Positions 42,681 to 61,867 of a DNA stretch of 64,000 nucleotides are shown one piece after another (positions within the stretch are counted from its first letter, which is position 1; each line of letters opens with the position of its first letter). Both the position numbers and the translations under genes were made by a program. The stretch is from Spirochaetales bacterium (GTDB lineage: Bacteria > Spirochaetota > Spirochaetia > JABEVK01). The notes beneath the pieces are model-generated. The model worked only from the letters and a program-made list of their open reading frames with translations, searched no databases and was not told where the DNA came from. The DNA lies in NCBI GenBank assembly GCA_037142615.1, contig JBAXAI010000008.1, forward strand, positions 1 to 64,000, given 5' to 3'.

Positions 42681-43822
42681 CCAGCTACCTCCTGCAGGTC
42701 AGCGAGAAACTCTTTGAGAACACTCCGGGTCACGTGCGGCATGACAACAACGCGGAAACTATGCTGCCAGGTCGACAGCGCCCATCCTTTTTCGCGCAGC
42801 GAGGCCACCAGCAGAGGCGTCGGCATGTGCGTGCTGCGAACCCCGACCACGTTCACCTGGGGTTCGGCCAGCACCGGCTCCACACCCGAAATCTGGGTAA
42901 GGGCCTGCGTGAGGAAGCGCGAGAGTTCCATGGCTTCGGCGACGATGGCCGTGTAGCCGGGCACCCCGAGGTGTTTCATGACGGCCCAGACCGCTGCAAC
43001 CGCCGCCCCGGAGCGGGTGCCAACGAGGGTGTTTTGGCGCAATCGCCCGCCGGAAAGGTACTGAACGTCGGTCGCCGCCGTCCGTGCCAGCGTAGCATCC
43101 TTCCACAGGATCATGCCCGAGGGAATGGGCCCGCGCCCCATTTTGTGGGGGTCGGCCGTCAGGCTGCTCAGGCCCTCGGGCCACGAATACAACTCCGAGG
43201 CTCGGTTTTCAGGCAAAAAAGGAAGCACGAAGCCGCCGAACGAGGCGTCGAGATGAAAATACAACCCGTGGCGAAGGGCTAACGCGGCCAAGGCACCAAT
43301 GTCGTCGATGGCTCCCCACGCCGTCGTCCCGGCGATGCCGATCACGGCCAGGGTCTGGGGTGTGATGGCAGCTTCCATGCGGTCGAGGCGAACCCGGCCC
43401 CGGTCGTCGACGGGAACTCTCACGAGGTTGAGACCCATGAACGACGCGGCTTTGTCGAACGAATAGTGGGCCGAGGCCGGCAGAAGCACCTCGCGCTTAC
43501 CGGGCGACAACAGTCTCGCGGTCCAGAGGGCCAACAGGTTGGCCTCGGTTCCTCCGGTGACAATGCGTCCCGCCGCCAAGGGGTTGCCCCACCAAGTGCC
43601 CAGCAGTGAGCAGGCTTCGCGCTCCAGTTCAGCCAGACCGGGCACCAGCCCTTCGTCACCGATGTTGGTCTCGAGGGCCCGCATAAAGGCCTGTTCGGCC
43701 ACCGGGTGTGGCCGCGAGCACATCGATCCCAGAATCTTGCCCGAGGCGAAGGTCCAATCCCCGGCAAGCCTCCGGTCGAGTTCTTCCAGCACGGCTCGCG
43801 AAGAGTCCGCTCCGAGGCTAAT
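42677..43822 (-). CDS. mfnA: PLP-dependent group II decarboxylase of MfnA/GAD type; probable aspartate 1-decarboxylase (start uncertain: ATT 43822 or GTG 43792)
   Basis: GKILGSMC.PHP, TGGTEAN, SAHYSFDKA, HLDASFGGF, PLP lysine in ADPHKMG, GTRSGA, RVVVMPHV. Confidence 0.88.
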   Translation of the reverse strand: MSLGADSSRAVLEELDRRLAGDWTFASGKILGSMCSRPHPVAEQAFMRALETNIGDEGLVPGLAELEREACSLLGTWWGNPLAAGRIVTGGTEANLLALWTARLLSPGKREVLLPASAHYSFDKAASFMGLNLVRVPVDDRGRVRLDRMEAAITPQTLAVIGIAGTTAWGAIDDIGALAALALRHGLYFHLDASFGGFVLPFLPENRASELYSWPEGLSSLTADPHKMGRGPIPSGMILWKDATLARTAATDVQYLSGGRLRQNTLVGTRSGAAVAAVWAVMKHLGVPGYTAIVAEAMELSRFLTQALTQISGVEPVLAEPQVNVVGVRSTHMPTPLLVASLREKGWALSTWQHSFRVVVMPHVTRSVLKEFLADLQEVAG

Positions 43823-44603
43823 GATAGGACTCCTTGTCGGCTGGGTACGTCCCCGAGCGCACGTCGGCCGAAAACTCGCCCAAAACCGACTTGATGGCGT
43901 CACCCACATGGAGGTAGCGATCGGGAACAAACTTGGCCTTGCGGTGACTGTTGAGGTGCAGCAGGTCGTGGAACACCAGAACCTGGCCGCTGGTGTGCGC
44001 TCCGGCCCCGATGCCAATCGTCGGCAGACCAAGACCCCGCGTCACCGACTCTCCGAGCGACAGAGGAACACATTCCAGCACCACCGAAAAGCAACCCGCC
44101 GCGGCAAGGTCACGGGCGTCGGCGTCGATCGCGGCAGCGTCGGCAGCGTCTTTGCCCTGCACCTTGAACGAACCTGCCGTCTGGGGCAACAAACCCAAGT
44201 GACCCATCACCGGGATTCCGCTGGCGAGGATAGCCCTGGCGATGCCTGGAGCATTGCCCTCAAACTTGACCGCATCGGCCCCGCTGGCCATCAGCAGCTT
44301 GGACGACTCCACGGCCGCCTCGGGGGTATCGTAGGAGTGCAAGGGAAGGTCGGCGACAATCGGGATCACTTTGCGCCCCCGCGCGGCCATCCGGGTGTGG
44401 TACATCATGTGCTCGAGTGTCACGGCCGAGGTGGAATCGCGGCCCTGCTCGACCATGCCGAGGCTGTCACCCACCAGGATCAGGTCGGCGCCGGCGGCTT
44501 CGACCAGCTCGGCCTGCCACGCGTCGTAGGCGGTCAGAACGACGAGCTTGTGACCGGCCTTCCAGGCGTCCAGAAACGGCTGCAAACGCGGTGTAGAAAT
44601 CAC
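43818..44603 (-). CDS. panB: Ketopantoate hydroxymethyltransferase
   Basis: LTAYD, LVGDSLGMV, GHLGLLPQ, VLECVP, IGIGAG, GQVLVFHDLL; GTG start overlapping the pps stop after GGAG. Confidence 0.95.
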   Translation of the reverse strand: MISTPRLQPFLDAWKAGHKLVVLTAYDAWQAELVEAAGADLILVGDSLGMVEQGRDSTSAVTLEHMMYHTRMAARGRKVIPIVADLPLHSYDTPEAAVESSKLLMASGADAVKFEGNAPGIARAILASGIPVMGHLGLLPQTAGSFKVQGKDAADAAAIDADARDLAAAGCFSVVLECVPLSLGESVTRGLGLPTIGIGAGAHTSGQVLVFHDLLHLNSHRKAKFVPDRYLHVGDAIKSVLGEFSADVRSGTYPADKESYH

Positions 44604-45370
44604 TTTTGTTCTCCTGCCAGGGCGTAGAGCCGGTCGGCCATGAACTTCAGGGCTTTTGCGAGATTGGCCCGGTTGTCCCAGGCACCCCAAAGTGCCTCAA
44701 GCTCGCCCCGGGGCCGGTTCTTGAGAGCCCCCGCTTCGCTGACCAGCAGAGGCAGCGCCCGCAGGATGTTGTCGACGATGGTCAAGTGCGACATCTTCGA
44801 GGTACGCGAAAGCGGGTTCAGGTCGATGGTCAGCACCGTCTTGCCGAGCTTGACCAGAGCCTCGGTTCGGTCCCCGTCTTCCAGCGGCACCAACACGGTG
44901 TCGGCGATGAGAATTCCTCGCGGCGACACGATGCGACGCGCGTGCTGAAGCTCATCGATCACAGCGCTGGCGTCGTCACCCACCCCGAGCACCTCGGTGG
45001 CCCCGGCGGCCCGCAGCGCGGCCTCGACCGCTTCTTCCCGTCCAGGCTTGCGGTAGAACAGGTTGACCTCGAGCCGGGCACCGGTGACTTTGGAAAGCTC
45101 AACGAGTTCGGCGGCCACCAGAGCGGCGGCGTTGCCGTTCACCGAGATGACAGGATGGGACGAGAGCAGCAGTTTCGCGGCAGCGGCGCGGCACGCTTCG
45201 CGGCCAAAATCGGCCGTTGCTTCACCCAAAAAGTAGTCCAGCGACTCACCCCTTCCGTGAGCGATCAGACCGGATTCGGTGACGACCAGGGAATGCAGTC
45301 CCTCGACGATCTTTTCGCGGCTCATCAACGAGGCGTAGCGCGGATGGCTGGTCGGAATCTCAATCAGCAT
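44600..45370 (-). CDS. Archaeal-type phosphopantothenate synthetase (4-phosphopantoate--beta-alanine ligase, COG1701/DUF137)
   Basis: IPTSHPRYASL..RE, GLIAHGRGE..DY, SVNGN, EVNLFYR, VPLEDGDRTEAL, IDLNPLSRT, TIVDNI.RA. Confidence 0.93.
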   Translation of the reverse strand: MLIEIPTSHPRYASLMSREKIVEGLHSLVVTESGLIAHGRGESLDYFLGEATADFGREACRAAAAKLLLSSHPVISVNGNAAALVAAELVELSKVTGARLEVNLFYRKPGREEAVEAALRAAGATEVLGVGDDASAVIDELQHARRIVSPRGILIADTVLVPLEDGDRTEALVKLGKTVLTIDLNPLSRTSKMSHLTIVDNILRALPLLVSEAGALKNRPRGELEALWGAWDNRANLAKALKFMADRLYALAGEQK

Positions 45371-46256
45371 GCAAAAGCCTCCCGCCCTGCAAGTCGAGCT
45401 GCGAAGAAAAAACGGTGCCTGAGCCCAACAAACGGAACGCCGCGAGCGCGCGCTCGGCGTCGAAACTCTCTACGAGGGTAAACAACCCATCGCCGAACAT
45501 CAGCATGGGAGCGGTGAACCCTTTGTCGGCGAGCAGGGTCTGGCAGCCGGTCAGCCGACCGCTGACGAGCTGCGTCTGGCGGCCAAAGCGAACCGAGAGT
45601 TCCAAGAAATGTTTCCACGACGGAGCGTCGAGCAGGGCCTGCCGAAAGGCCTCGCCTTCCCTGTTGACCGCCTCGCGGATGGCAGGGTTTCCCAGCATGG
45701 CCGAGGTGGCCAGCGGGCCCAAAACCAGGAAGACGGCGGTCAGACCGTCCGGAGTGGGCAGCGGTTGCACACGCCCCACCCCGGGTGCCCCTGGCTCGAG
45801 ACTGGCCTTGAAGCCGCCGTGGGCTTCACCCAGAACGGTTCCCAGGCCGGTTCCGCATTCAATTTCGGCCAGATGGGCCAGAGCCCCGGCCTGATCGGTC
45901 GAAAGTGGAGACCCCGCCAGGCCGTTGAGAGCCAGCGCAAGCGACAGCGCTCCGGCTCCCGAAGTGCCAAAACCGCAACCCACGGGGAGCGTCGTTTGGT
46001 GCTCGATGGCCACCGGTTGCGTCCAATTGGCCCTGGAGCGAAACAGGCGCAACACTGCGAGGGAAACCGGCGCATCGTCGAGAGTCTTGCCGCCAAGCTT
46101 CACAGAATCGGATTCTGCCGAAAAGACTTGGGTCTCAACCCCGAGGGCAAGGCTGAACCCCGCGCCGAGCGAACCGTGGTGAAGGGGGTCCGAATGGGGT
46201 CGAATCGAGAAGAACCCCGTGACATGACCGGGAGAAAAGGCGCGGGAAGAATGCAT
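45360..46256 (-). CDS. Archaeal-type pantoate kinase (GHMP kinase, COG1829)
   Basis: N-terminal AFSPGHVTGFF, GSLGAG, GHMP loop PVGCGFGTSGAGAL, AH.AE....TGLG, PGAPG; adjacent to PPS. Confidence 0.88.
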   Translation of the reverse strand: MHSSRAFSPGHVTGFFSIRPHSDPLHHGSLGAGFSLALGVETQVFSAESDSVKLGGKTLDDAPVSLAVLRLFRSRANWTQPVAIEHQTTLPVGCGFGTSGAGALSLALALNGLAGSPLSTDQAGALAHLAEIECGTGLGTVLGEAHGGFKASLEPGAPGVGRVQPLPTPDGLTAVFLVLGPLATSAMLGNPAIREAVNREGEAFRQALLDAPSWKHFLELSVRFGRQTQLVSGRLTGCQTLLADKGFTAPMLMFGDGLFTLVESFDAERALAAFRLLGSGTVFSSQLDLQGGRLLHAD

Positions 46257-46340
46257 GTAGTACCTTGGAACCCATGGTATTGTAAAAAGTTCCGTTTGAG
46301 AAGTGCGGGATTTTGCCGAAACTGGGAACAGGAGTCCTGT

Positions 46341-46856
46341 ATGAACCGTATGCTGGCCGTTGTGGTGTTTGTCGGGTGCAGCCTTTCCCCGCTGGCTTCC
46401 CAAGACTTGCCCGCCTCAGACCCGACCACCCTCACCGTGGCGCCGTCGGATCAGGTGAAGTACCCCGAAGCAAAGGACATCCTCAACCCCCTGCCTCCCC
46501 CGGCGCCCAAGGTAGTACCCAAAGCGGCACCCAAAGCAGCCGACAAACCCGTGGTCCCGGTGGTCAAGGTGGTTCCCGGTGGTCCGCTGCTGGCTTCGGC
46601 TCCGATTCCGGCCGTGGCTCCCGTGGCCGCCAAACCCGTGCCGCTTCATGGCTGGTTCATCGTGTGGTCGCTTTCGGGCTCCGCCGAGGCCGTGCAGACC
46701 TGGGTGGAGGGACTCCAAGCCGCCGTGCCCGCGTTGCCTGTGAAGGTTTCCGGCAAAGGTGCGGCGTGGACCGTAGAACTCGGTCCTGTCGATGCTCAAT
46801 CGCTCGACGCCGCGTGGGCCGTTCCGGGAGCTCGTCCCCGCCTCATCAAGAAGTAG
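46341..46856 (+). CDS. Exported Pro/Lys/Val-rich protein with a SPOR-like C-terminal domain
   Basis: SD CAGGAG, signal peptide, low-complexity linker, WTVELGP. Confidence 0.6.
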   Translation: MNRMLAVVVFVGCSLSPLASQDLPASDPTTLTVAPSDQVKYPEAKDILNPLPPPAPKVVPKAAPKAADKPVVPVVKVVPGGPLLASAPIPAVAPVAAKPVPLHGWFIVWSLSGSAEAVQTWVEGLQAAVPALPVKVSGKGAAWTVELGPVDAQSLDAAWAVPGARPRLIKK

Positions 46857-52099: not shown

Positions 52100-52807
52100 T
52101 CAGTTTCCACTTTCGTAAGTGACGAGTTCCAGCGTGCGCAGGGGCGACCCTGGGCCACCCAAGGGGCCTTCGCTGCGGATCAGCAGGTGTGGTGCCGCTG
52201 CGGCAAACCACAGCCTGGTTTTGCCCACAAACGGTCCATAAATGCCGGTCAGGCCGACTTCCACCGGCAGACAGTCCCACGACTTGCCTCCCACCGTGAC
52301 TTTCTGCACCGCGAGGACGTTGAGCTCGAGCGAGTAATCGCCGCTCGACGCGTTGGCACCCAAAAACACCAAGCGCGCGTGTGACACCCGCTCGAAGGGA
52401 AAACCCCGCAGCGCAAAGACGAGCGACGAAAGATCAGCAATCACGAGTTCATCGCTGGCGGCGCTGTGCAGATTCTGCAGGAACTCCGTCTGCCGGCGAA
52501 TCACGGCGTCTTTGGTTCGGGTGGTGGCGTCGATGGCAACCGGGAACAAGGTCTTCGGTTCAAAGCGGACGGCCGTGTCGCCTTCTGCTGCTTTGGTTGT
52601 CCATTCAAGCCAGCTTTTTCCGGAGTCGGAACGGCGTTTGAGCGCCATTTCTACGGTGTTCGTCGTTTTGTTCACCTGCTCGCGATAAACCATGCGCTCG
52701 CTTGCCGGAAAGCCGGGGTCCGACAGGGTGATTTCGGCAAAAGCGGGGGCAACGAGGCAGGAAGTAACAAGGCAAGCCAACAGAACAACGCGGCGAACAA
52801 GTTTCAT
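52100..52807 (-). CDS. Hypothetical exported beta-rich protein (DUF3108-like)
   Basis: Signal peptide ending AFA; KVTVGG.SWDC and RLWF....PHLL motifs. Confidence 0.65.
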   Translation of the reverse strand: MKLVRRVVLLACLVTSCLVAPAFAEITLSDPGFPASERMVYREQVNKTTNTVEMALKRRSDSGKSWLEWTTKAAEGDTAVRFEPKTLFPVAIDATTRTKDAVIRRQTEFLQNLHSAASDELVIADLSSLVFALRGFPFERVSHARLVFLGANASSGDYSLELNVLAVQKVTVGGKSWDCLPVEVGLTGIYGPFVGKTRLWFAAAAPHLLIRSEGPLGGPGSPLRTLELVTYESGN

Positions 52808-52827: not shown

Positions 52828-54792
52828 TCAGGGCGAGGTCAAGACCCGGAAGGTCAGATTCGCCGGGCGAAACACAACCGTGTAGGTGACGCCGGGCGTG
52901 GTGGCGAGTTGGAAGTTATCGTCGGAGGTGCCGTCACTGACAACCGAGGCCGACGCTGCAAGCGTGGACCCCGCAGGAACGGGCGTCGAGGCGTCGTAGG
53001 TGGCGCTGGCAAAGGGCCACGCGGTCGTCCAGCCCTGGGAACCAAACTTGAACGTGACCCACCCCCCCGCCGGAGCAACAAAAGACCGTGAAAGGGTTCC
53101 CGTGCCGTCGTCGGCCAGCAACTGAGAGTCATCCCAGGGTTTTGTGGTCATCGACCCGCGCAAGTACAGCGGCCCGTCAGTGGCACGCTCTACCAACGCC
53201 CCGGGCGTATCGAGCGCGTAAACGCGCAGGGCATACGGCGGCAGGTTGCGCACGGTCAGGGTGCCCGCGCCCGCCACCTTGTCGTCGGTCCCGAACACCG
53301 TCGTGACGGAAACAAAGCCTCCGGGAACTGTGAGGAGCGGCGAGGCCAAATTGCCTAGATTGGCCACGACCAGCGCCCGAGCCCCGGTGCAACCCGTGAG
53401 GAGAAACGCCACAATATCGGCGGCCGAGCTCACGGTTACCCCTTGGATGGCCGGGTCGGTGTACGCTCCCAGCGCGGTGCGCAGGTGAAGCAGTTGACTG
53501 TGCCAGGTCCACAGCGAGTCGGAGGCCAACGCTTGGGCGACTTCGGAGGACCAATTGAACGCCTGCCGAAGGTTGAGGTCGTTGCCGGCCGCCCCGGTCA
53601 TCCCGATCTCGTTGCCGTAGTACACGATCGGCGTCCCCCGCCCCAAGATTGACAAAGCGGCGGCGAGTTGGGCTTTTTCGGGCTGGCCGGCCCACAGGGT
53701 AGCGGGCCGGTCAACCACATTGTCGTGGTTCGACTGGAACACACCGAAGGCGCTGCCGGCCGGCAGCGACGCATTGTCGTCCACCAGGTGACTCAGCAGC
53801 GCCGACGCGCCTCCCGAGGTCAAGTTGTCGCGCAGGGTGTAGGGCCAAATAAAGTCGAGCGCCACATGGAACTCGGGAACACCCCCATTGTTGAGGTAGC
53901 TGCGCACGTTGTTCAGGTCGCCGTCCCAGTTTTCGGCCATCATGAACTTGGCGTAGCCCTGGCTCGTGTACGAGTCCAGGAGTGACCTCAGGTTGTCGAA
54001 AAACGTGTGGGTTTCGGGCTGGTCTTTGAAGTCGCCGTTGGGACCTTCCACCAGGTACTTCACGGCGTCGATGCGCAGGCCGTCGAAGCCAAAGTTCAGC
54101 CATCGGGTGACCACATTGCGCATTTCGGTGACGACCTCGGTATTGCGGTAGTCTAGGTCTGGCATAGAGTTGCTGAACAGGCCGTAGTAGTAGGGCCCCG
54201 CTCCCCACCAGGGGCCGCCCGAAGCGAACGCCGTCCAGCCCGAGGGCTTGGTGGTGCGCCAAACGTACCAGTCCTTGTGGGTCGTGAACCACGGTGACTG
54301 GTTGCTGGTGTGGTTGGGCACAAAGTCAAAAAGCACCCGCAGTCCCTTCGCGTGCGCCGCCAGCAGCAAGTGAGCCAGGTCGTCCCGGGTTCCGAACAGC
54401 GGGGCCACGGTGTCATAGTCAAGGGTATCGTAGCCGTGTTTGTTCCCGCTGCCGGTCGTCAGTGTGGTTGCCTTGAAGATCGGCGACAGCCAAAGCGTGT
54501 TGACGCCCAGGCTGGCGAAATACCCTGCGTTGACCTTGGCCGTCAGGCCGTTGAGGTCGCCGGTGCCGTCGCCGTTGCTGTCGGCAAACGAGGCCACCCA
54601 CAGGTGGTAAATGGCCGTGTTGGAGCGCTCCCAGCCCGCAGCGGCTCCCAGTGATTGACTCGCGGGAGTCAACGCGGGGTCGGGAACCACGGGTTCGGTC
54701 GACGTGGGTAAGTTCCCAGCGGGAACAGGCGCCCCGCAGGACGCGAACATCAGCCACAGCAACAGTACGAACGTGAAGCGCAACAGGTTCAT
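52828..54792 (-). CDS. GH13 alpha-amylase lipoprotein with a C-terminal starch-binding-like module
   Basis: Lipobox FASC; DSNGDGTGD, HGYD, DFVPNH, catalytic RIDAVKY, AENW, NHD; tail LYLRGS...W...FKF. Confidence 0.92.
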   Translation of the reverse strand: MNLLRFTFVLLLWLMFASCGAPVPAGNLPTSTEPVVPDPALTPASQSLGAAAGWERSNTAIYHLWVASFADSNGDGTGDLNGLTAKVNAGYFASLGVNTLWLSPIFKATTLTTGSGNKHGYDTLDYDTVAPLFGTRDDLAHLLLAAHAKGLRVLFDFVPNHTSNQSPWFTTHKDWYVWRTTKPSGWTAFASGGPWWGAGPYYYGLFSNSMPDLDYRNTEVVTEMRNVVTRWLNFGFDGLRIDAVKYLVEGPNGDFKDQPETHTFFDNLRSLLDSYTSQGYAKFMMAENWDGDLNNVRSYLNNGGVPEFHVALDFIWPYTLRDNLTSGGASALLSHLVDDNASLPAGSAFGVFQSNHDNVVDRPATLWAGQPEKAQLAAALSILGRGTPIVYYGNEIGMTGAAGNDLNLRQAFNWSSEVAQALASDSLWTWHSQLLHLRTALGAYTDPAIQGVTVSSAADIVAFLLTGCTGARALVVANLGNLASPLLTVPGGFVSVTTVFGTDDKVAGAGTLTVRNLPPYALRVYALDTPGALVERATDGPLYLRGSMTTKPWDDSQLLADDGTGTLSRSFVAPAGGWVTFKFGSQGWTTAWPFASATYDASTPVPAGSTLAASASVVSDGTSDDNFQLATTPGVTYTVVFRPANLTFRVLTSP

Positions 54793-54835
54793 CGGGTTAC
54801 CACCGGCCCTAAACTACGCCCGACAGGCACCGAAG

Positions 54836-54925
54836 TTCAACCGGTTTAGACAACTTTGGAGAATTTGCCTGCGCGCTGCCGAAAGTCGTGTTTTCATGAT
54901 TCAACCGGTTTATTAAATCGGTTCA
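54836..54925. promoter_or_regulatory. Cluster of LacI-family-like operators in the divergent amylase/OMP intergenic region
   Basis: TTCAACCGGTTTA at 54836-54848 and 54900-54912 (exact repeat with palindromic core AACCGGTT), plus AATCGGTT at 54916-54923. Confidence 0.7.
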
Positions 54926-54966
54926 CGGGCGAGCTGCTTACGAAGCTTGCTCTTTCGGAGGAATAT

Positions 54967-56961
54967 GTGATCAGACGAGCGAGCTTGACAACTCTCTGCC
55001 TATTGATGGCGGGGTTGCTGTTTGCCGAGGTCCGCATCAAGGACCTGGACGGGACCAACGTGGAAATCACGTTTACCTACAAGGATGACAAAGCCTCGGA
55101 AATGGGAGTCATCGGCAGTCTTGATAACTGGACCGTTCCCGGCGAAGCGATGGAAAAGAACGCCGATGGCCTGTGGGAAAAGACCATCAAGGCCTTGGCG
55201 ACCGATGAGATCCAGTACAAGTTTTACTCCAAGGGCTCGTGGATCTTCGACGAAAAGTCCCCCGACAAAAAAGACGATGGGTACGGCGCGTTCAACGGCC
55301 TCATCGTGGTGGCCGACATCCTCAGTGGCGTCACCCCGGCAGTACCGGGCGCCGCGCCAGTCACTGTGGCAGGCGTCGCGGTGGTCAACACCTACCCCAG
55401 CAAGCTCAGCTTCGGCATGACAGCCGTCGTCGGTTCAAAAACAACTTTCGCCACCCAGGGCATGGTCGACAAGACCGTCAAAGGCCTGGAAACCGACACC
55501 ACAGGCCTGTACGGGCGAATGACCTGGAACTTCAACGGTACGCTGATGCCGGGCATGACTGTGTTCTTCAATGGAACGGCCTTTGACAAGTACGTTCCCT
55601 TGTGGCAACAGGATTCCACCGGTTTGGTGTCGCCGACGCTGGACCAGAGTGTGGCAGCCCTGGTGAGCGGCCTGTTGGCCAACCCGATCAACTACCTGGG
55701 CGGTGCCAACCCGTCGCTCACTTCGCTCAAAACCGGTATCGAGACACCGCTGCTCAAAATCGAAACCGGTACCGGACAGGCTGCGCCGACCAAGCACAAC
55801 CCGGTGCTGTGGGACACCTTGACCTCGACCAACGCCAACGACGGCTACCTGCGCTTCGACTTGGGGTCAGACCTGCGCAAATGGGGCCCCTTGACCCTTG
55901 ATGCCAACCTCACGCCGAATCGCATCCAGGGCAATCTGGCGGCTTTTGGCTGGATCACTGCGAACGTGGAAAGCTCCACGGTAGACTTCACCTACGCCGC
56001 AAAATCGGCCACCTCGACCGATGTCGCCGCTTTTTTCGACAAAGTCTACGCGCAGGACTTTGCTGCGGGGGTCAAGTCCAGCTTGTTTGGCATTGACCTT
56101 TGGGCCCAGGGCTTGGTGAACGTGTTCAGCGAAAGCCCGTTCGACCCCCTCACGCAATCGGCCGGTGAAGTGAAGCTGGGCTGGAACGGTCCCAAAGACA
56201 TTCTCGATGTCAGCGCCGCCTACCGCTATACGGGCACCATGGCCACCATGATCTTTGGCAACAACAACGATGGCACGGGAACCCAGGGCACCCAGCGCGT
56301 GGCTGTCACCCTGTTCAGCAAGCCGCTCGACAACCTGAAACTGGGTGTCGATGGCAACGGAGTTCTCACCACCGCCAAACTGGCCCAGAACGCGGTCGAG
56401 TTTTACGCCAAGCCCTACTTGGAGCTTCAACTGGCACCCTACCTGGGCAAGACTGCGACCTTAAACGCCTACGCTAAAATGAATTACAACTTGACCGACG
56501 GTGCCACCTACGTTGAAAAGGGGTCGGCGGGACCGTTCATCCTGGGCGAAGGTGGAGCCAAGTTCTGGTTCGCCGACCCGATTCCGGGGGTCTTTACCGG
56601 CGTAGACACCTTTTTGGGCGTGAACAACTGGGACAAGACCAAGGTGTTCACCTCGCTGGTCACCAGCTGGAAACTGCCGGGCAATGGCGAGATCGATGTG
56701 GGAACGGGCCTGCGAACCGTGCGCGACACGGCAGCAGCCTCGGTGTCTACGGCCAACAATGCGGTTGGGTTCGCCTTGGGCGGCTCACTCAAGTTGCCGT
56801 TTCCGGAACTCAAGAGTCCGTTGCTCTACGGAGCCTTCACCTGGAACATGGACCCCTTCGGCGAAGGGTATTACAGCCTGAGCGATTACATCACCAGCGG
56901 GGGCGCTGCCCAAAGCGACGGCAAGTCGCAACTGCGCGCCTTCCTCAAGTGGGAGTTCTAA
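54967..56961 (+). CDS. Exported protein: CBM48/AMPK-beta-like glycogen-binding domain plus probable outer-membrane beta-barrel (paralogue 1)
   Basis: GTG after GGAGG, signal peptide, VIGSLDNW...GLWEK...YKFYSKGSWIFD, amphipathic strands, C-terminus LRAFLKWEF. Confidence 0.75.
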   Translation: MIRRASLTTLCLLMAGLLFAEVRIKDLDGTNVEITFTYKDDKASEMGVIGSLDNWTVPGEAMEKNADGLWEKTIKALATDEIQYKFYSKGSWIFDEKSPDKKDDGYGAFNGLIVVADILSGVTPAVPGAAPVTVAGVAVVNTYPSKLSFGMTAVVGSKTTFATQGMVDKTVKGLETDTTGLYGRMTWNFNGTLMPGMTVFFNGTAFDKYVPLWQQDSTGLVSPTLDQSVAALVSGLLANPINYLGGANPSLTSLKTGIETPLLKIETGTGQAAPTKHNPVLWDTLTSTNANDGYLRFDLGSDLRKWGPLTLDANLTPNRIQGNLAAFGWITANVESSTVDFTYAAKSATSTDVAAFFDKVYAQDFAAGVKSSLFGIDLWAQGLVNVFSESPFDPLTQSAGEVKLGWNGPKDILDVSAAYRYTGTMATMIFGNNNDGTGTQGTQRVAVTLFSKPLDNLKLGVDGNGVLTTAKLAQNAVEFYAKPYLELQLAPYLGKTATLNAYAKMNYNLTDGATYVEKGSAGPFILGEGGAKFWFADPIPGVFTGVDTFLGVNNWDKTKVFTSLVTSWKLPGNGEIDVGTGLRTVRDTAAASVSTANNAVGFALGGSLKLPFPELKSPLLYGAFTWNMDPFGEGYYSLSDYITSGGAAQSDGKSQLRAFLKWEF

Positions 56962-56965
56962 CAAG

Positions 56966-57454
56966 ATGAAATCAAAAACGCATTTTCTGGCGGGGTGGGC
57001 CACCCTGCTTCTGACCTTGGGGCTGCTGACCAGCTGCGACCACGTGCTCCACAACGGCACTTCGATGGCGATCAGCCAGGTCAAGCTCATCGGGCTGCCG
57101 TCGTCGCCCTACGCGGCCGGCACCTCGATGGTGTTCAGCTACAACACCGGCAACGGCTGGATTCATGACCAGGATTCGACGTTCACCGATGCCAAGTACT
57201 CGGCGAAAGTTCTGGCGGACGGCTCGTGGACTCTGAACTTCAGCCCGGCGTTGCTCCTGACGGCTTCGCAACTGCAATACCTGCTGATCGACGCGGGCAA
57301 AAACTGGAACACGATGAAAATCACCAAAAAGATCAGTGGCCAAAGCGGAATCGGCGACGACGGCTTGATGGATAACCTTTGGTCTGGTGCCAGCGCGCCT
57401 ACCTCGCTGGTCGGAACCGTCAGCGGCAGCGACGTGACGTGGGTGTGGCAGTGA
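56966..57454 (+). CDS. Small lipoprotein (beta-sandwich, possibly carbohydrate-binding)
   Basis: Lipobox LLTSC; Trp-rich beta domain. Confidence 0.7.
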   Translation: MKSKTHFLAGWATLLLTLGLLTSCDHVLHNGTSMAISQVKLIGLPSSPYAAGTSMVFSYNTGNGWIHDQDSTFTDAKYSAKVLADGSWTLNFSPALLLTASQLQYLLIDAGKNWNTMKITKKISGQSGIGDDGLMDNLWSGASAPTSLVGTVSGSDVTWVWQ

Positions 57455-57468
57455 GAAGGAACATGACC

Positions 57469-59436
57469 ATGAAGAAACTGATTCTGATGTTGGGAGCCAC
57501 CCTGATGGTTGGCGGTTTGGCCACAGCCGAAATCGCGCTCAAGGACAAGGGCAGCGGCCAGGTGGAAATCACCTTTACCTACAAAGACGACAAAGCCAGC
57601 GAAATGGGTGTGATCGGCACCCTGGACAACTGGACAGTTCCCGGTGAGGCCATGGAACGCAATGCTGCCGGTCTGTGGGAAAAAACCATCACCGCGCTCG
57701 CCACCGACGAGATCCAGTACAAGTTCTATTCCAAGGGCAGCTGGATTTTTGACGAAAGGGCCCCCGACAAAAAGGACGACGGCTACGGTGCGTTCAATGG
57801 GTTGATCGTGGTGGCCGACATTTTGTCGGGCGTTACCCCGGCCGTTCCCGGTACGGCACCCGTTGTTGTCGCCAAGGCCAAGGGCAAGCCTGGTCGACCC
57901 AAGGCGTCCTTTGGTACCCAAACTTGGGTGGCCAGCGACACGCAGTTCGACACCACGGGCGGCTTTGCGCCGACGGTGTCTGCTCTCGATGCCTACTCAC
58001 TATGGAAGTTCCAGGGAGACCTGATTCCGAACGTGCCTGGTTACTTGGAGTTGACAGCGTTCAACGGCGCTCCACAGCTTTACAATTCGGGAACCGCTGC
58101 TGGTTCGACAAAACTGGAATGGCTGGACGGCCTCAAGAATCTGGCGACCGGTGTGGGCTTCAACCCGTTTTATTACCTAGGCGGCAATGCGCGGCCCCAC
58201 CTCGACAAGTTCCGGATCGGCATCGAAACACCGTGGGTGAATTACGAGACCGGTTACAAGGGAACGATTCTGCCGGGTCACCAGTCAGTCTTGTGGGAGA
58301 CGGTTGGTGCCCCTGTTGCAGACAGCGGCTACACGCAGCTTTCCCTGGGAAAAAGCCTTCAGACCTGGGGAGACCTGGAGTTGAGTGGCGGCGTCCTGCC
58401 GAACTTCAGCTCGAGTGTCATCGGCAAGTTTGGCTTGTTCAGTTGGCTGTCGGCCTCGTTCGAAGGGTTCACTGCCGATGTCGCCTATGAACTGCGATCA
58501 CTTTCCGGCACCGATCCGACCCAGTTTCTGGTGGATCCTGCCCGTCAGGACTGGATTGTTGGCGGTTCCGCTGTGGCAGACGGTTGGTCACTGAAGTTCA
58601 ACGGCCTGTATTCGCTCTACATTCCCGGCACGACGGTTGATCTTCAAGCGTTCAATCTCAAGTCGGCCTTTCAAGTCGAAGGCGGGTATACCGACTACTA
58701 CGGCGACTCACAAACCCTCGTGGGCCTTTCGTATCGCGGAAGCAGCGCCGCCAACATGCTGTATGTGGCCAACAATGCGGTGCTTGGCCTGCCTGGATCT
58801 GCCATGGTCAGCGTCAAGGGCTTTCAAAACTTCGGCTACGAGGCAACGGTTAACTACGATGCCAGCGTTGTTACGGCGGTAACCAACATCGCAAGCAACA
58901 ACATCGGCCTCACGCTGACACCCGATCTCAGGCTGAACCTGGACGTTCTGACCTCAAACGCCCTGAAGTGGAAACTCGACCTATACGCCCAGTTGGCGTC
59001 GAATACGAAGGGTGCCTTGGTCTCGTTGCCCGTGGCAGGGCTCGTGGCCCACTCCGACGAAATTGACTTGTACTACCGCTGGGATGCTTCCGATACCACA
59101 AACAACGTGCTGTTCAACTCGGTGTTAGGGCAAGTTCGTTTTGGGCCGCTGGCCTTGCAGTTGGGTGGTGCACTGCGTACCGGCGCGAGTTCGGGCAGCC
59201 CCTTCGGTGCCACCGCAGGGCTCACGTTCAACGTGGATGCCCCAGCTGCCAAGAATCCCGTGCTCTACAGCAACTTTGTGTATGGCATGGACCCGTATGC
59301 CTCGAGTTCCACTGCAAGCAGCTTCAACCTCACCAACTACGGCATTCCCGGTGGCCCGAACCAAAGCATCGACAGCAACTGGGCAACGTCCAAGACCACC
59401 AGCGCACTCCGCATTGGCTTGTCTTGGAACTTCTAG
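57469..59436 (+). CDS. Exported protein: CBM48-like domain plus probable outer-membrane beta-barrel (paralogue 2)
   Basis: SD AAGGA, signal peptide, N-domain 91/97 aa identical to paralogue 1, C-terminus LRIGLSWNF. Confidence 0.75.
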   Translation: MKKLILMLGATLMVGGLATAEIALKDKGSGQVEITFTYKDDKASEMGVIGTLDNWTVPGEAMERNAAGLWEKTITALATDEIQYKFYSKGSWIFDERAPDKKDDGYGAFNGLIVVADILSGVTPAVPGTAPVVVAKAKGKPGRPKASFGTQTWVASDTQFDTTGGFAPTVSALDAYSLWKFQGDLIPNVPGYLELTAFNGAPQLYNSGTAAGSTKLEWLDGLKNLATGVGFNPFYYLGGNARPHLDKFRIGIETPWVNYETGYKGTILPGHQSVLWETVGAPVADSGYTQLSLGKSLQTWGDLELSGGVLPNFSSSVIGKFGLFSWLSASFEGFTADVAYELRSLSGTDPTQFLVDPARQDWIVGGSAVADGWSLKFNGLYSLYIPGTTVDLQAFNLKSAFQVEGGYTDYYGDSQTLVGLSYRGSSAANMLYVANNAVLGLPGSAMVSVKGFQNFGYEATVNYDASVVTAVTNIASNNIGLTLTPDLRLNLDVLTSNALKWKLDLYAQLASNTKGALVSLPVAGLVAHSDEIDLYYRWDASDTTNNVLFNSVLGQVRFGPLALQLGGALRTGASSGSPFGATAGLTFNVDAPAAKNPVLYSNFVYGMDPYASSSTASSFNLTNYGIPGGPNQSIDSNWATSKTTSALRIGLSWNF

Positions 59437-59448
59437 AGTCTTTGAAAC

Positions 59449-59512
59449 CATGACTGGGGTACACCGGGCCTTGTCCGGTGTCCAGCATGAAACTCCCGCA
59501 CAACCTGCGGGA
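59449..59512 (+). other. Intercistronic stem-loops without a U-tract
   Basis: CATGACTGG..ACACCGGGC-ctt-GTCCGGTGTCCAGCATG and TCCCGCA-caacc-TGCGGGA. Confidence 0.55.
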
Positions 59513-59526
59513 TTCAGGAGCACGAT

Positions 59527-61082
59527 ATGAATCGTCTTTTCTTGGCTATGTTGTCGTTGCTGGCAGTCATTGGTCTGGCCAGTTGTGACCTTCTTGGTCC
59601 TGGTACTGACCCCGGTACCGGCGGCACCACAGATATTTTCTTGGGAACGGGAACCGGCGGTGGCACTTCCGGTTGGTGGATCAAGGGGAGCTTTGATGGC
59701 TGGGTTGGCGTGGATGACAAAGCTGTGATTGGCAGCAACACAGTCCATTTGCTTAGTGTTGACGCTGTCAACCCAAACCTCCTCAGTTTCGAGATGACAA
59801 AGGCTACTTTGGGCCTTCGCCAAGACGACTATAAGTTCGTCTTGATGGGTCCAGACCCTGCCGGTGTCGCTGCAGATCGGATCAAGTTCAACTTTGTGTT
59901 TGATGCAACAACGACAAAGTTTGCCGACAACACCGTTTACACTCTTGTTCCTTCAACAACAACGGGCACATCCGACATCGTGTTCACCGCGAGTGCCACG
60001 AGCTATACCATCTTGGTCGATACCACTGACCCGGCCGCCCCAAGAGTCAAGTTGATTCCTGGAAGCTCAGCATCGACTGCGTACACGGAACTGGAAATTG
60101 CGGACGGACTTAACCTCAAGGGCAGTGTTTTCGACGGTAGCTGGACCGCCCACACAACGGCCTCCGAAGCGGTTACTGGCACGAAAGACGCCGTATATGA
60201 TGCAACAGCCCATACGGTCACTTGGGACAACTTGAAGATTACCAAGGCCGGTGGAGCTTTCGGAATAGACTCCTTGAACGGCTGGCTCGTAGTTCCCGAC
60301 ACCGTTGCAAGCAGCTCAGCCGCTGTCGTGAATGTTATGACCGGAACTGGTAGCAATCCGACTCTCACAGGAACCCCGACTGATTTCTCCGATACGGTCT
60401 ATACCTTTGTCGTAACAATCGATTACACCAAAACCGTCGCACTTGGGCGTTACAGTCTATCGATTGCTGTCAAGACTCTCGGGACAACGGCATGGCCTGC
60501 GATCGATCCGTTGACCGTCACCATTGATATGACGAATGGTGCCGGAAACGGCGATTCTTGGGGAGCTCAACTGGGGCAAATCTCAACAGCGGTTTCCGGA
60601 TCGAACCTTTTGGTAAAAATAACGTTCGCCAAGAGAGACGCGGGTGGCGGTAACAACGTCTGGCTCTTGACAACGCGGATATAGCAACTGGAAGTACTGA
60701 TGTAACCAACGACGTATTTGCAGGTTGGGGAAATATCGGTATGACCACGAGCAGCAACCTGAACTATGATTTCATGGCTTGGGGTAGCAACGCTGGCAAA
60801 ACATCCCCTGGTTTTGGGTATGCTGGTGCAAAGACAATCATCACTGGCACGGCTACTGATGTGAAGTCGACTGTAGTGGTTGTTGAAGAGTCCGCAACAT
60901 CGACCCTTTGGTTCCAGATTCCCAAGACGGCACTCCAACTCGACGCGACACACAACCATCTGCAAGCAGTCGTGTTGTTTGGCCAAAACGGGGATATCCA
61001 TTCCATGATCCCGGCGACAACAAACGACGCCGCTTTCACTTCGTTTAGTACTGTCGCAACCCAAACAATTTCGGGCTTGTAG
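59527..61082 (+). pseudogene. Multi-domain lipoprotein with SusE/F-like starch-binding modules, split by a -1 frameshift near 60667 (ORFs 59527-60684 and 60741-61082)
   Basis: Lipobox LASC; WWIKGSFDGW...YKF and LKGSVFDGSW modules. The downstream frame is open from 60654 and reads DNADIATGSTDVTNDVFAGWGNIG into MTTSSNLNYDF. Confidence 0.7.
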
Positions 61083-61089
61083 CACTCCC

Positions 61090-61159
61090 CCCGCCAGAGC
61101 GACTGGCGGGTTTCTCTGACTTTCGACCGGCAGGACAAGTTCCTGCCGGTCTTTTTTTT
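61090..61159 (+). terminator. Tandem hairpins; the second is a strong intrinsic terminator
   Basis: CCCGCCAG-agcga-CTGGCGGG, then GACCGGCAGGA-caagt-TCCTGCCGGTC followed by T8. Confidence 0.85.
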
Positions 61160-61209: not shown

Positions 61210-61434
61210 ATGAAGAACATCACGCTCTCTATCGACGATGACCTTTTGAAGTTGGGCCGCGAGTACGCGCGTACCCAGCACCAGTCTTTCAACGTGCTGG
61301 TTCGCAGGCTCCTGGAACAAACGGTTACCAAAAAGAGTTCGTCTTGGCTCGACGAAACCTTTGTCTACATCGACAAAAACATCGATTCCCGGGTCGGCAT
61401 CACGTGGTCACGGGACGAACTGTACCGTGGCTAA
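61210..61434 (+). CDS. vapB: RHH-type antitoxin (DUF6364/VapB-like)
   Basis: MKNITLSIDDDLL...REYA, C-terminal WSRDELY; overlaps the PIN toxin gene. Confidence 0.82.
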   Translation: MKNITLSIDDDLLKLGREYARTQHQSFNVLVRRLLEQTVTKKSSSWLDETFVYIDKNIDSRVGITWSRDELYRG

Positions 61435-61867
61435 GGTCTTTCTTGATACCAACCTTCTGCTCTACACCGTCGACAAGCAAGATCCTGACAAGCACGAGCA
61501 AGCCCGCCGGGTGTTAAAGAGGATCACTTGCGACCACGTTGCGGTGATTTCAACGCAGGTGCTGCAAGAGTTCTATAGCGCCGCCACGTCGAAACTGAAG
61601 CTTGACAAGATGGTCGCCAAGCACTTGCTCCACAGCTTCGCAAACCTCGAAACCGTCGTGGCCGATCTCGCTCTGATTGAACAGGCCGTCGACATCAGTG
61701 CCCTGTTTCAACTTTCGTTTTGGGACTCTTTGGTAGTTGCCGCCGCTGAACGAGGCAACTGCTCGTATATGGTCACGGAAGACCTCAACGATGGGCAGAG
61801 TATTCGCGGCGTTCAGGTGGTGAATCCTTTCAAGAACCCAGACTTTGCCTTTGCCGACCGGAGGTGA
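61427..61867 (+). CDS. vapC: PIN-domain toxin VapC
   Basis: FLDTN, STQVLQEF, SFWDSL, TEDL.DG; GTG start. Confidence 0.88.
   Translation: MAKVFLDTNLLLYTVDKQDPDKHEQARRVLKRITCDHVAVISTQVLQEFYSAATSKLKLDKMVAKHLLHSFANLETVVADLALIEQAVDISALFQLSFWDSLVVAAAERGNCSYMVTEDLNDGQSIRGVQVVNPFKNPDFAFADRR

Follow-up and report, generated by a model that had tools for sequence, protein, structure and literature searches.

A candidate outer-membrane alpha-glucan utilisation locus of Spirochaetota with CBM48-bearing 24-stranded barrel proteins and lipoprotein partners

The inspection of a 64,000 nt stretch of DNA from a freshwater spirochaete (Spirochaetales bacterium, JABEVK01; assembly GCA_037142615.1, contig JBAXAI010000008.1, positions 1-64,000; hereafter the window) revealed a locus at 52828-61159 that is likely to be the outer-membrane part of a system for the utilisation of alpha-glucans (starch, glycogen, maltodextrin), of a kind so far seen only in named Spirochaetota, and to work by the mechanism proposed below. 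This reading is carried by gene content, the fold of barrel A, the CBM48 domains, synteny, a link to alpha-glucan genes and the lack of matches to TonB, TonB-dependent receptors, SusD and LamB. The locus contains a GH13 lipoprotein gene divergent from a compact operon that encodes two large proteins (barrels A and B) and two lipoproteins (LP-A and LP-B), with the following features:

52828..54792, minus strand: GH13 alpha-amylase-family lipoprotein, 654 aa; divergent from the operon
54793..54966, no strand: divergent intergenic spacer between the GH13 and barrel A genes, 174 bp
54967..56961, plus strand: barrel A, 664 aa; ends KWEF
56966..57454, plus strand: LP-A, 162 aa; lipobox LLTSC
57463..59436, plus strand: barrel B, ATG start, 657 aa; ends SWNF; paralogue with A-like architecture
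59527..60684, plus strand: N-terminal frame of LP-B, a large multi-domain lipoprotein; 385 aa; lipobox GLASC
60654..61082, plus strand: continuation of LP-B in another frame; 142 codons stop to stop, first ATG at 60741
61125..61151, plus strand: intrinsic terminator closing the operon; 11-bp stem with 8 GC pairs, loop of 5, then T8

The layout given in the initial annotation, a GH13 lipoprotein gene divergent from a four-gene unit closed by a strong terminator, was confirmed, with all genes present. The genes of the operon are separated by gaps of 4, 8 and 90 nt; barrel A starts at a GTG (54967) with GGAGG located 5 nt upstream, and a second hairpin lies at 61090-61110. Both promoters are presumably in the spacer, and one weak sigma-70-like match was found on the minus strand (54991-54962). 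None of the RNA runs checked contains the stretch of the locus. The protein encoded at 52828-54792 belongs to GH13 by a family-level sequence match to the PF00128 (Alpha-amylase) catalytic domain (E 4.6e-69, 234 bits), and DUF3459 was matched as well. It has 197 sequence relatives in the PDB at E <= 1e-10, the best being TreS, alpha-glucosidases and amylase A (E 1e-40 to 1e-45). Its signal peptide ends in LMFASC, which is lipobox-like. The C-terminal ∼115 residues gave no family match and were unrelated to LP-A and LP-B by hhalign.

Barrels A and B share a common plan: a signal peptide, a CBM48-type domain, a Pro/Ala linker of 20-36 residues and a C-terminal part of ∼520 residues. In barrel A these correspond to the signal peptide, the CBM48 domain (about residues 20-114), a Pro/Ala/Val linker (115-145) and a 24-stranded beta-barrel (146-663). 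The two proteins are 41% identical over their full length, with 30% identity in the barrel part and 87% in the CBM part; in the family tree, A and B form separate monophyletic clades (support 100/99). The C-terminal part of barrel A can be confidently modelled as a 24-stranded outer-membrane barrel, the fold evidence being the AF2 model of this protein; barrel B is placed by sequence paralogy. In the model (mean pLDDT 83.4) most of the barrel exceeds 90 and 24 strands extend over residues 146-663, while the CBM48 domain and the linker, which is disordered, are of low confidence (pLDDT 40-79, pTM 0.68). Foldseek returned 244 matches at E <= 0.001, and among the matches listed all were outer-membrane barrels. 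VIA-align found FimD (3ohn_B, Z 16.8, 354 residues aligned) and PapC (Z 16.8), with the polysaccharide exporters AlgE, PelBC and Wzi among the lower-ranking matches. That the closest folds are secretion ushers and not porins is an observation that runs against reading the barrel as a channel. Hydrophobicity alternates in 22 of the 24 strands, and the 42 aligned family members end in F (30), Y (10) or L (2), all having W at position -3. The outer membrane is the predicted location of both proteins. Searched against Pfam, the C-terminal part gave nothing at E <= 0.1; the barrel profile reached a best E of 0.24 against PDB sequences and, against an Msp profile of only two sequences, an hhalign probability of 0.1%. 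The proposal of an undescribed, non-Sus family thus agrees with these searches, and that of a membrane-barrel fold was borne out for barrel A by AF2, Foldseek and VIA-align.

Sequence and model comparisons identify the N-terminal domain of both barrels as a CBM48 / AMPK-beta glycogen-binding module, an assignment that appears real, if weak by Pfam. The matches to PF16561 (E 1.9e-5 and 3e-5) scored 25.2 and 24.6 bits, short of the 26.8-bit cut-off. The module was further matched in PDB sequences to the CBM48 of LSF1 (E 4e-5) and the CBM of AMPK beta2 (E 3e-3), with alignment of the motifs GSxxNW, YKFxxxGxW and GxxNxxxV, which we take to be the CBM48/AMPK-beta signature, and in structures to 8bbp_A (Z 10.4) and 4aef_B (Z 9.9). 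In addition, CBM48/AMPK1_CBM matches were found in 39 of 52 representatives of the barrel family, many of them above the cut-off. The CBM48-like domain of the initial annotation is therefore retained, its weak Pfam scores being backed by PDB, fold and family matches. Surface residues of the sugar-binding type are conserved, which suggests ligand binding over a purely structural role.

LP-A carries a conserved C-x-x-x-LHNG after the lipid cysteine and two invariant tryptophans, W65 and W114 (alignment A7, 32 sequences). It gave no Pfam match, and its profile found SusE in the PDB at a non-significant E of 0.2-0.3. Compared by hhalign with the CBM48 part of the barrel protein, it gave a probability of 69% (E 4.4e-5); LP-A is probably itself a CBM48-like sandwich. 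LP-B had been described as a single open reading frame up to 61082, but alignment to an intact 510-aa orthologue revealed a frame change near 60654-60684, the downstream frame corresponding to the C-terminal domain of the orthologue. This continuation is 40% identical to residues 363-508 of the orthologue (L003:14417-15949), where it is in a single frame. The frameshifted sequence was also present, without gap or difference, in contigs of runs X2 and X3 (another sample). The LP-B protein of the window had no Pfam match and no detectable homology to LP-A. A putative likeness to SusE/SusF, for which PF16411/PF14292 or tandem CBM folds would be the criterion, consists for LP-B of an ESM-Atlas feature lead from the L003 orthologue to a SusF/SusE starch CBM cluster (score 0.94, 178 shared features) and a CBM_20 match in only one of 12 orthologues (E 4.8e-5).

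The barrel family comprises 124 representatives among 1.84 billion proteins, and its named members are all Spirochaetota. Fourteen named spirochaete loci keep the order A, LP-A, B, LP-B to the extent that their contigs cover it: an LP-A orthologue follows barrel A in all 14, and an LP-B orthologue follows barrel B in the 12 loci whose contig extends that far. In seven of nine loci, a GH13 or pullulanase gene is present within 10 kb. In 10 divergent single-copy loci the barrel is always accompanied by a small lipoprotein; alpha-glucan genes adjoin in nine of them, and in three (L030, L031 and L033) so do genes for a solute-binding protein and permeases (MalEFG-like). Two loci of the alpha-glucan type lack neighbouring alpha-glucan genes, L015 having GH3 only and L032 none. 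A sister branch without CBM occurs in GH53 galactan loci, after GH53 galactanases and a LacI regulator, in the order barrel, small lipoprotein, large lipoprotein; the small lipoprotein was found after the barrel in 11 of 12 galactan loci. The sister branch suggests that the barrel module is glycan-locus hardware. GH53 is sometimes fused to the sister-branch barrel (GH53 plus Big_4 in P0120; also L055, L057 and L058), while in unfused galactan loci it has an ordinary signal peptide without an anchor. One family member, P0102, carries two CBM48 domains; N-terminal modules are thus interchangeable across the family. The GH53-barrel fusions could equally argue for surface display of such modules.

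The conserved core is a barrel plus a small lipoprotein, and LP-A is, by synteny, the partner gene common to the whole barrel family. The initial annotation had described two equal barrel-lipoprotein units; the universal unit instead pairs the barrel with the small LP-A type, LP-B being unrelated to it and variable between loci. The three points on which that annotation had staked its reading, a membrane-barrel fold, the lack of a known family and the co-occurrence of homologues with GH13 genes, were all borne out, the first for barrel A and the last in the loci examined here.

The absence of TonB-dependent receptors, SusD and LamB, initially noted for the window, extends to the whole genome (96.7% complete), in which PF00593, PF03544 (TonB), PF02264 (LamB) and PF07980 (SusD) gave no match; positive controls were matched in the search for PF03544 and PF00593. 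The same genome has 18 GH13 matches. Among the window ORFs from 37 kb to the end, no solute-binding protein and no ABC importer were seen.

In the mechanism that we infer, including the direction of transport, the side of the CBM48 and all contacts between the proteins, each large protein would be inserted by BAM to form a 24-stranded, TonB-independent channel for linear alpha-glucan chains. The CBM48 domain, on its flexible linker at the periplasmic side, would bind the incoming chain and so bias its movement inwards. The chain would then be passed to a periplasmic or lipid-anchored GH13 enzyme or pullulanase, and from there to a MalEFG-type importer. LP-A may be an obligate partner to the barrel and serve as a gate, a plug or a substrate-feeding lid, while LP-B and the GH13 lipoprotein would be accessories specific to the substrate, binding and cutting the polymer.

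The side of the membrane that bears the CBM48 domain separates this mechanism from one in which the barrel is an autotransporter-like anchor for self-export, the linker passes through the lumen, and the CBM48 or GH53 module lies outside, tethering the cell to starch granules or cutting polymer, with uptake by the same pore or another route. The Pro/Ala-rich linker, 20-36 residues long and disordered in the model, could span the membrane; the N-terminal module can be exchanged (a single CBM48, a pair of them, or GH53 with Big_4); endo-acting enzymes mostly act on polymer outside cells; and the ushers, the closest folds, pass folded domains outward. The loops of the barrel, however, point the other way. 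Even-numbered strand connections are short (2-9 residues) and almost constant in length, whereas odd-numbered ones are long and variable (sd up to 6.8). In an outer-membrane barrel with an even number of strands, both termini are periplasmic; 24 strands with this alternation of short turns and long loops indicate that strand 1 begins on the side of the C-terminus. By this even-strand rule, and not by its low-confidence position in the model, the CBM48 domain is probably periplasmic, and probably not the surface capture domain initially envisaged. Further, Pfam yielded neither an autotransporter nor a POTRA match, and the plain signal peptide of GH53 in unfused loci fits a periplasmic enzyme; the Dickeya gan locus is a known example of an endo-galactanase working in the periplasm behind a glycoporin. 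Surface display is thus unlikely.

A 24-stranded pore is too wide to stay open and requires a plug, a point that weighs against the channel mechanism and raises the alternative that the lumen is occupied by the CBM48 sandwich or by the small lipoprotein, as it is by the plug in ushers and TonB-dependent receptors and by LptE in LptD, and that the substrate displaces this plug. Ushers are shut by a beta-sandwich of ∼80 residues in the matched solved structures, the small lipoprotein is found family-wide even where the barrel has no CBM, and the conserved LHN motif immediately follows the lipid cysteine of LP-A. A GH53 module of 650 residues in the same place cannot, however, be a plug, and the conserved sugar-binding residues of the CBM48 domain speak for a ligand, which makes an internal plug rather improbable. 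It is very improbable that an exopolysaccharide of the alpha-glucan type is secreted or anchored by the barrels, or that these are outer-membrane proteins of a general structural kind with an incidental glycogen-binding domain: AlgE, PelBC and Wzi do appear among the lower-ranking folds, but the genes nearby code for degradative enzymes and for ABC importers rather than for glycosyltransferases or polymerases, and the sister branch follows GH53 galactanases and a LacI regulator.

The channel mechanism may extend beyond alpha-glucans. We tentatively suggest that Spirochaetota possess their own general, TonB-independent counterpart of PULs, composed of an undescribed 24-stranded barrel and an obligate small CBM-like lipoprotein, to which CBM48 (for alpha-glucan), GH53 (for beta-1,4-galactan, either fused or adjoining) and large lipoproteins specific to the substrate would be added, the N-terminal module lying in the periplasm beneath the pore and serving as a chain ratchet or cutter. 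If true, this would be a form of glycan import distinct from the SusCD pedal-bin and from classical glycoporins.

Comparison with Sus (SusC/SusD, SusE/F, SusG) shows similarities in the combination of a barrel, adjoining lipoproteins, a lipidated GH13 and more alpha-glucan enzymes, in the existence of related loci for another glycan (GH53 galactan), in a SusC-like chain among the fold matches (5t3r_D, Z 13.7) and in the feature-level lead from LP-B to SusE/F CBM proteins. In contrast to SusC, however, the spirochaete barrel has no plug domain, TonB box or PF00593 (nor PF07715) match, has 24 strands instead of 22 and bears its own N-terminal CBM48; its partner is a beta-type lipoprotein of 140 residues, not the TPR-like SusD; the genome has no TonB or SusD match; and transport must be energy-independent. 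A TonB-dependent receptor and a Sus-type PUL were rejected on these grounds and on the absence of Pfam matches in LP-A and LP-B. In the LamB/MalE/MalS system, and in Dickeya with the LamB-like GanL and the periplasmic galactanase GanA, the glycan enters by threading through a channel, and its capture or cutting takes place in the periplasm. The spirochaete locus shares this passive glycoporin logic, with the capturing CBM48 or GH53 fused to or adjoining the channel. It differs in having a 24-stranded monomer-type barrel with lipoprotein partners, against an 18-stranded trimer, and no sequence relation; LamB was rejected, PF02264 being absent from protein and genome and 1mpr_A covering only part of the barrel (Z 12.0).

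FimD and PapC are the best whole-barrel structural matches (354-380 residues aligned, model range 145-664) and have the same number of strands. They show only 7-9% identity, the spirochaete barrel lacks their inserted plug and C-terminal periplasmic domains, and its context is glycan catabolism; with no PF00577 match and neither chaperone nor pilin genes in the neighbourhood, what the two share is the 24-stranded barrel shape only. Msp/Tpr proteins are likewise spirochaete-specific outer-membrane proteins with an N-terminal non-barrel part, and an Msp cluster is among the Atlas feature neighbours (score 0.94). Neither MOSP_N nor MOSP_C was matched, and with the hhalign result given above this assignment was rejected; MOSP_C occurs in two of 81 genomes from the class, neither of them that of the host. 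A type V autotransporter was also rejected, there being no PF03797 or POTRA match and 24 strands instead of 12 or 16. LptD-LptE, which joins a very large barrel to a small lipoprotein, may by analogy be a model for the role of LP-A as obligate partner; no homology to it was detected and its genomic context is different.

Glycan degradation is an important activity of free-living spirochaetes and of those from gut, rumen and termites. To our knowledge, nutrient passage across the spirochaete outer membrane is poorly known, and many spirochaetes lack TonB systems and classical porins. The barrels probably carry starch fragments across the outer membrane without a known Sus or maltoporin, and the locus is a concrete candidate for this step, its barrel family being small, confined to the phylum, tied to a constant lipoprotein partner and found with degradation genes for at least two glycans. 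If confirmed, it could serve as a marker in the search for further glycan utilisation loci of Spirochaetota and would offer a tractable system in which a membrane channel is fused to a carbohydrate-binding or catalytic module. It would then also be a third way of building an outer-membrane glycan importer, alongside the SusCD-type transporters and the LamB-type porins.

The region 52828-61159 was found to comprise two divergent transcription units, with six reading frames in all. The reading frames, the lipobox and the hairpin at 61125-61151 confirmed the arrangement described in the initial annotation, namely a gene for a GH13 lipoprotein divergent from a four-gene unit closed by a terminator. 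The features are:

52828-54792, minus strand: GH13 enzyme, 654 aa (Pfam Alpha-amylase, E 4.6e-69)
54967 (GTG start), plus strand: barrel A, 664 aa, with GGAGG 5 nt 5′ of the start codon
56966-57454, plus strand: LP-A, small lipoprotein, 162 aa, lipobox LLTSC
57463-59436, plus strand: barrel B, 657 aa
59527-60684, plus strand: LP-B, large lipoprotein, 385 aa, lipobox GLASC
61125-61151, plus strand: terminator hairpin (11 bp, GC-rich, then eight T) ending the operon

The spacer between the GH13 gene and the plus-strand unit measures 174 bp, and the intergenic gaps within the four-gene unit 4, 8 and 90 nt. By sequence, the nearest solved relatives of the GH13 enzyme were trehalose synthases, α-glucosidases and amylase A. 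The enzyme is probably lipid-anchored, since its signal peptide ends in LMFASC; its C-terminal domain showed no relation to LP-A or LP-B in hhalign profile comparisons.

The operon is flanked by genes for a GGDEF protein, a phosphofructokinase, a Sua5-family protein, a 235-aa secreted protein, a PIN-domain protein and a nuclease-family protein, none with a visible link to it. The 235-aa secreted protein or lipoprotein (52100-52807, minus strand), which belongs to no known family, is encoded 21 nt downstream of the GH13 gene; no counterpart was detected in the 15 loci searched (L003-L017). A PIN-domain gene adjoins the barrel operon both in the window (61361-61867) and in L032, a locus with a single barrel copy (L032:8055-8528), and a weak PIN match lies downstream in L004 (L004:16585-16767), a locus with both copies; this proximity may be due to chance. 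Farther away, coenzyme A genes follow one another in the same orientation (41436-46403, minus strand), coding for a CoaBC-type flavoprotein (DFP), a PLP-dependent decarboxylase, a PF02006 phosphopantothenate/pantothenate synthetase (E 6e-68) and a GHMP-family kinase. The last two together resemble the archaeal-type phosphopantothenate pathway, which in a bacterium would be unusual.

Barrels A and B each open with a cleavable signal peptide, after which some 95 residues match the CBM48/AMPK-β glycogen-binding module. Their Pfam scores for CBM48 (25.2 and 24.6 bits) fall just below the curated cut-off of 26.8. The domain also matched two known CBM48 modules, that of LSF1, a plant phosphatase (E 4e-5), and that of AMPK β2 (E 3e-3), with the motifs around both CBM48 tryptophans aligning with those modules, and its predicted structure superposed on solved CBM48 domains (8bbp_A, Z 10.4; 4aef_B, Z 9.9). 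A linker of 20-36 residues rich in Pro, Ala and Val follows, and then about 520 residues. One family representative, P0102 (789 aa), carries two tandem CBM48 domains ahead of the barrel.

The C-terminal part, for which the initial annotation had called for a check of the fold, was predicted to be a membrane barrel. An AlphaFold2 model, made for barrel A only from a 42-sequence alignment, had a mean pLDDT of 83.4 overall, with most 10-residue blocks of the barrel at 84-97, and DSSP assigned 24 strands. Foldseek returned 244 matches at E ≤ 0.001, of which those listed were all outer-membrane barrels. A structure search independent of Foldseek placed the 24-stranded usher pores FimD and PapC at the top (Z 16.8; 354-364 residues aligned, spanning model residues 145-664), followed by SusC-like, TonB-dependent and Occ-type barrels; sequence identity to all structural matches was 6-12%. 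A script run on the 42-sequence alignment found hydrophobic/polar alternation in 22 of the 24 strands. Of the 42 sequences, 30 end in F, 10 in Y and two in L, and every one has Trp at position -3, a pattern typical of BAM signals.

The initial annotation knew of no described family with this architecture, and the reading as an undescribed family stands. The barrel part of A and B matched nothing in Pfam or NCBIfam, and a profile of 24 barrel-only sequences retrieved no solved structure from the PDB sequences (best E 0.24) and only 124 proteins at E ≤ 0.001 among 1.84 billion cluster representatives. A spirochaete Msp cluster appeared among the ESM Atlas feature neighbours of the barrel; kinship with Msp/Tpr was rejected at an hhalign probability of 0.1%, obtained with an Msp profile of two sequences only, and MOSP_C had no match in the host genome. 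Another candidate relative, from Eisenbacteria (L017), proved to be a GH13 enzyme with two CBM48 domains and no barrel. The source names on family members are all Spirochaetota, Spirochaetia, Spirochaetales, Treponemataceae, Rectinemataceae or Treponema, and the barrel profile matched 21 of 401 sampled Spirochaetota genomes, the host included (13 of 153 genera). A full-text literature search, with subscription journals and supplements outside its coverage, found nothing on the family; a passage in PMC13749626 concerns 24-stranded TolC-like trimers, not with this barrel family.

The gene order barrel A, LP-A, barrel B was conserved in all 14 named spirochaete contigs, with LP-B next in the 12 that reach that far. 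In a tree built by maximum likelihood from 45 barrels, the A copies fell into one clade and the B copies into another (support 100/99), so the duplication that gave rise to A and B came before these lineages. Within the window, the CBM48 domains of A and B (55024-55380 and 57520-57880) share 87% identity at the protein level and 76% at the DNA level, as against 30% for the barrels. The same holds within each genome of L003-L016, the loci with A and B copies, where the two CBM48 domains are far more alike than the two barrels; they are also closer to each other than orthologous modules are across genomes (53-76%). That this likeness persists although the duplication predates these lineages suggests, from the sequences, gene conversion or a shared constraint on the module.

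As the initial annotation had expected, barrel homologues co-occur with GH13 genes. Pfam searches of the flanks found GH13 enzymes less than 10 kb from the barrels in seven of nine A/B loci, often with a PUD-CBM48-GH13-SpuA_C pullulanase directly upstream. Of the other loci, L005 has GH31 and a weak pullulanase-domain match, and L015 GH3 only. A 973-aa frame without a Pfam match at 1e-5 (L005:6548-9469) occupies the place where the close relative L003 has the pullulanase; it may have been called in the wrong frame or strand. More distant barrel relatives are single copies. Each of the 10 loci inspected (the near-identical L035 and L038 amounting to one observation) has a lipoprotein of 135-196 residues directly after the barrel, and nine have α-glucan genes (GH13, pullulanase or GH57) within about 5 kb; three include a MalE-like binding protein and permeases.

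The small lipoprotein is thus the constant partner gene of the barrel. Word-indexed searches with LP-A and LP-B returned self-matches only, and orthologues were taken by synteny instead. Alignment of 32 small lipoproteins left only the lipid cysteine C24, W65 and W114 invariant, and in 28 of them an LHN motif stands a short way past the cysteine; none matched a Pfam family. Their profile aligned, with moderate confidence, to the barrel protein over its CBM48 part (probability 69%, E 4.4e-5, 114 columns), both invariant tryptophans pairing with the two CBM48 tryptophans. That LP-A might be a lipidated CBM48-like module is only a lead, because the signal peptides supply part of the score. LP-B was rejected as a relative of LP-A, since hhalign aligned the signal peptides only. 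The picture of two like barrel-plus-lipoprotein units therefore needs correcting: LP-A-type proteins are the constant partner, and LP-B is unrelated to them.

LP-B is split by a frameshift at 60654-60684 relative to its intact 510-aa orthologue in L003. The two align up to ...GGNNV(W/Y)LL, and the remainder of the orthologue aligns with the frame 60654-61082, from L(A/L)LDN(A/G)DIATG; such a shift takes one missing base or two additional ones near 60664-60672. At this site, contigs of two further metagenome runs (X2 record 3, from a different study, and X3 record 6) show no difference or gap, so the frameshift is not a one-off assembly error. Most LP-B orthologues are 400-425 aa long and lack the C-terminal domain of the 510-aa protein, and the 385-aa LP-B may therefore still work. 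Its only links to known starch-binding proteins are an ESM Atlas feature match between the L003 orthologue and SusF/SusE CBM proteins (score 0.94, 178 shared features) and a CBM_20 match in one of 12 orthologues; its profile had no match among PDB sequences.

CBM48 was absent from 12 of the 52 family representatives scanned, and a thirteenth (P0120) has GH53 and Big_4 ahead of the barrel. A metagenome scan with this CBM-less branch yielded 31 loci. Reading frames were mapped in 12 of them, and in 11 a 145-169 residue frame follows the barrel, always with a lipobox and an LH[ND]Q motif; a large lipoprotein comes after it. Pfam scans of eight loci placed a GH53 galactanase immediately upstream of the barrel in six, two genes upstream in one and in fusion with it in one; a second GH53 occurs downstream in seven and a LacI regulator in three. 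The order in these β-1,4-galactan loci is GH53, barrel, small lipoprotein, large lipoprotein, second GH53 and, in some, LacI. Fused GH53-barrel frames of 1209-1244 aa were found in L055, L057 and L058, and the fusion's 90% cluster comprises 76 members from many contigs, two named Treponema sp. The large lipoproteins of the galactan loci showed no detectable relation to LP-B (hhalign probability 20%). The same barrel and small lipoprotein thus serve as shared hardware of glycan loci, of which the N-terminal module and the large lipoproteins would be the substrate-specific parts.

The host genome (4.27 Mb, 76 contigs, 96.7% complete) had no match to models for the TonB-dependent receptor barrel, TonB_C, LamB or SusD_RagB, while the control for each gave its match; this bears out genome-wide the absence of a TonB-dependent receptor, SusD and LamB first noticed in the window. 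It has 18 GH13 matches. Another outer-membrane route for α-glucans, not TonB-driven, is therefore needed. Contigs carrying this stretch occur in freshwater and lake metagenomes, from 10 studies in all, with no RNA runs among those listed. The earlier interpretation was right in kind: the locus appears to be a non-Sus outer-membrane α-glucan module of an undescribed family, for whose proteins we infer function, location and contacts. Its account of the repeating unit, of the state of LP-B and of the side of the membrane carrying CBM48 required revision.

CBM48 had been proposed to capture glucan at the cell surface. The barrel A model, with pLDDT 40-79 for CBM48 and linker and a pTM of 0.68, does not place the module on either side. 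The strand connections alternate strictly: even-numbered ones are 2-9 residues long, of near-invariant length across the 42 sequences, and odd-numbered ones are longer and variable (sd up to 6.8). Outer-membrane barrels have long variable loops outside and short turns in the periplasm, so strand 1 would start in the periplasm, like the C-terminus, and CBM48 would hang beneath the pore, where it could retain glucan or hand it over. The linker may instead thread through the wide lumen and display CBM48 at the surface, but the alternation makes surface capture less likely than periplasmic retention or hand-over. A periplasmic N-terminal module also fits the galactan loci, whose unfused GH53 galactanase carries an ordinary signal peptide without an anchor; the Dickeya gan locus is known to combine a glycoporin with an endo-galactanase in the periplasm behind it.
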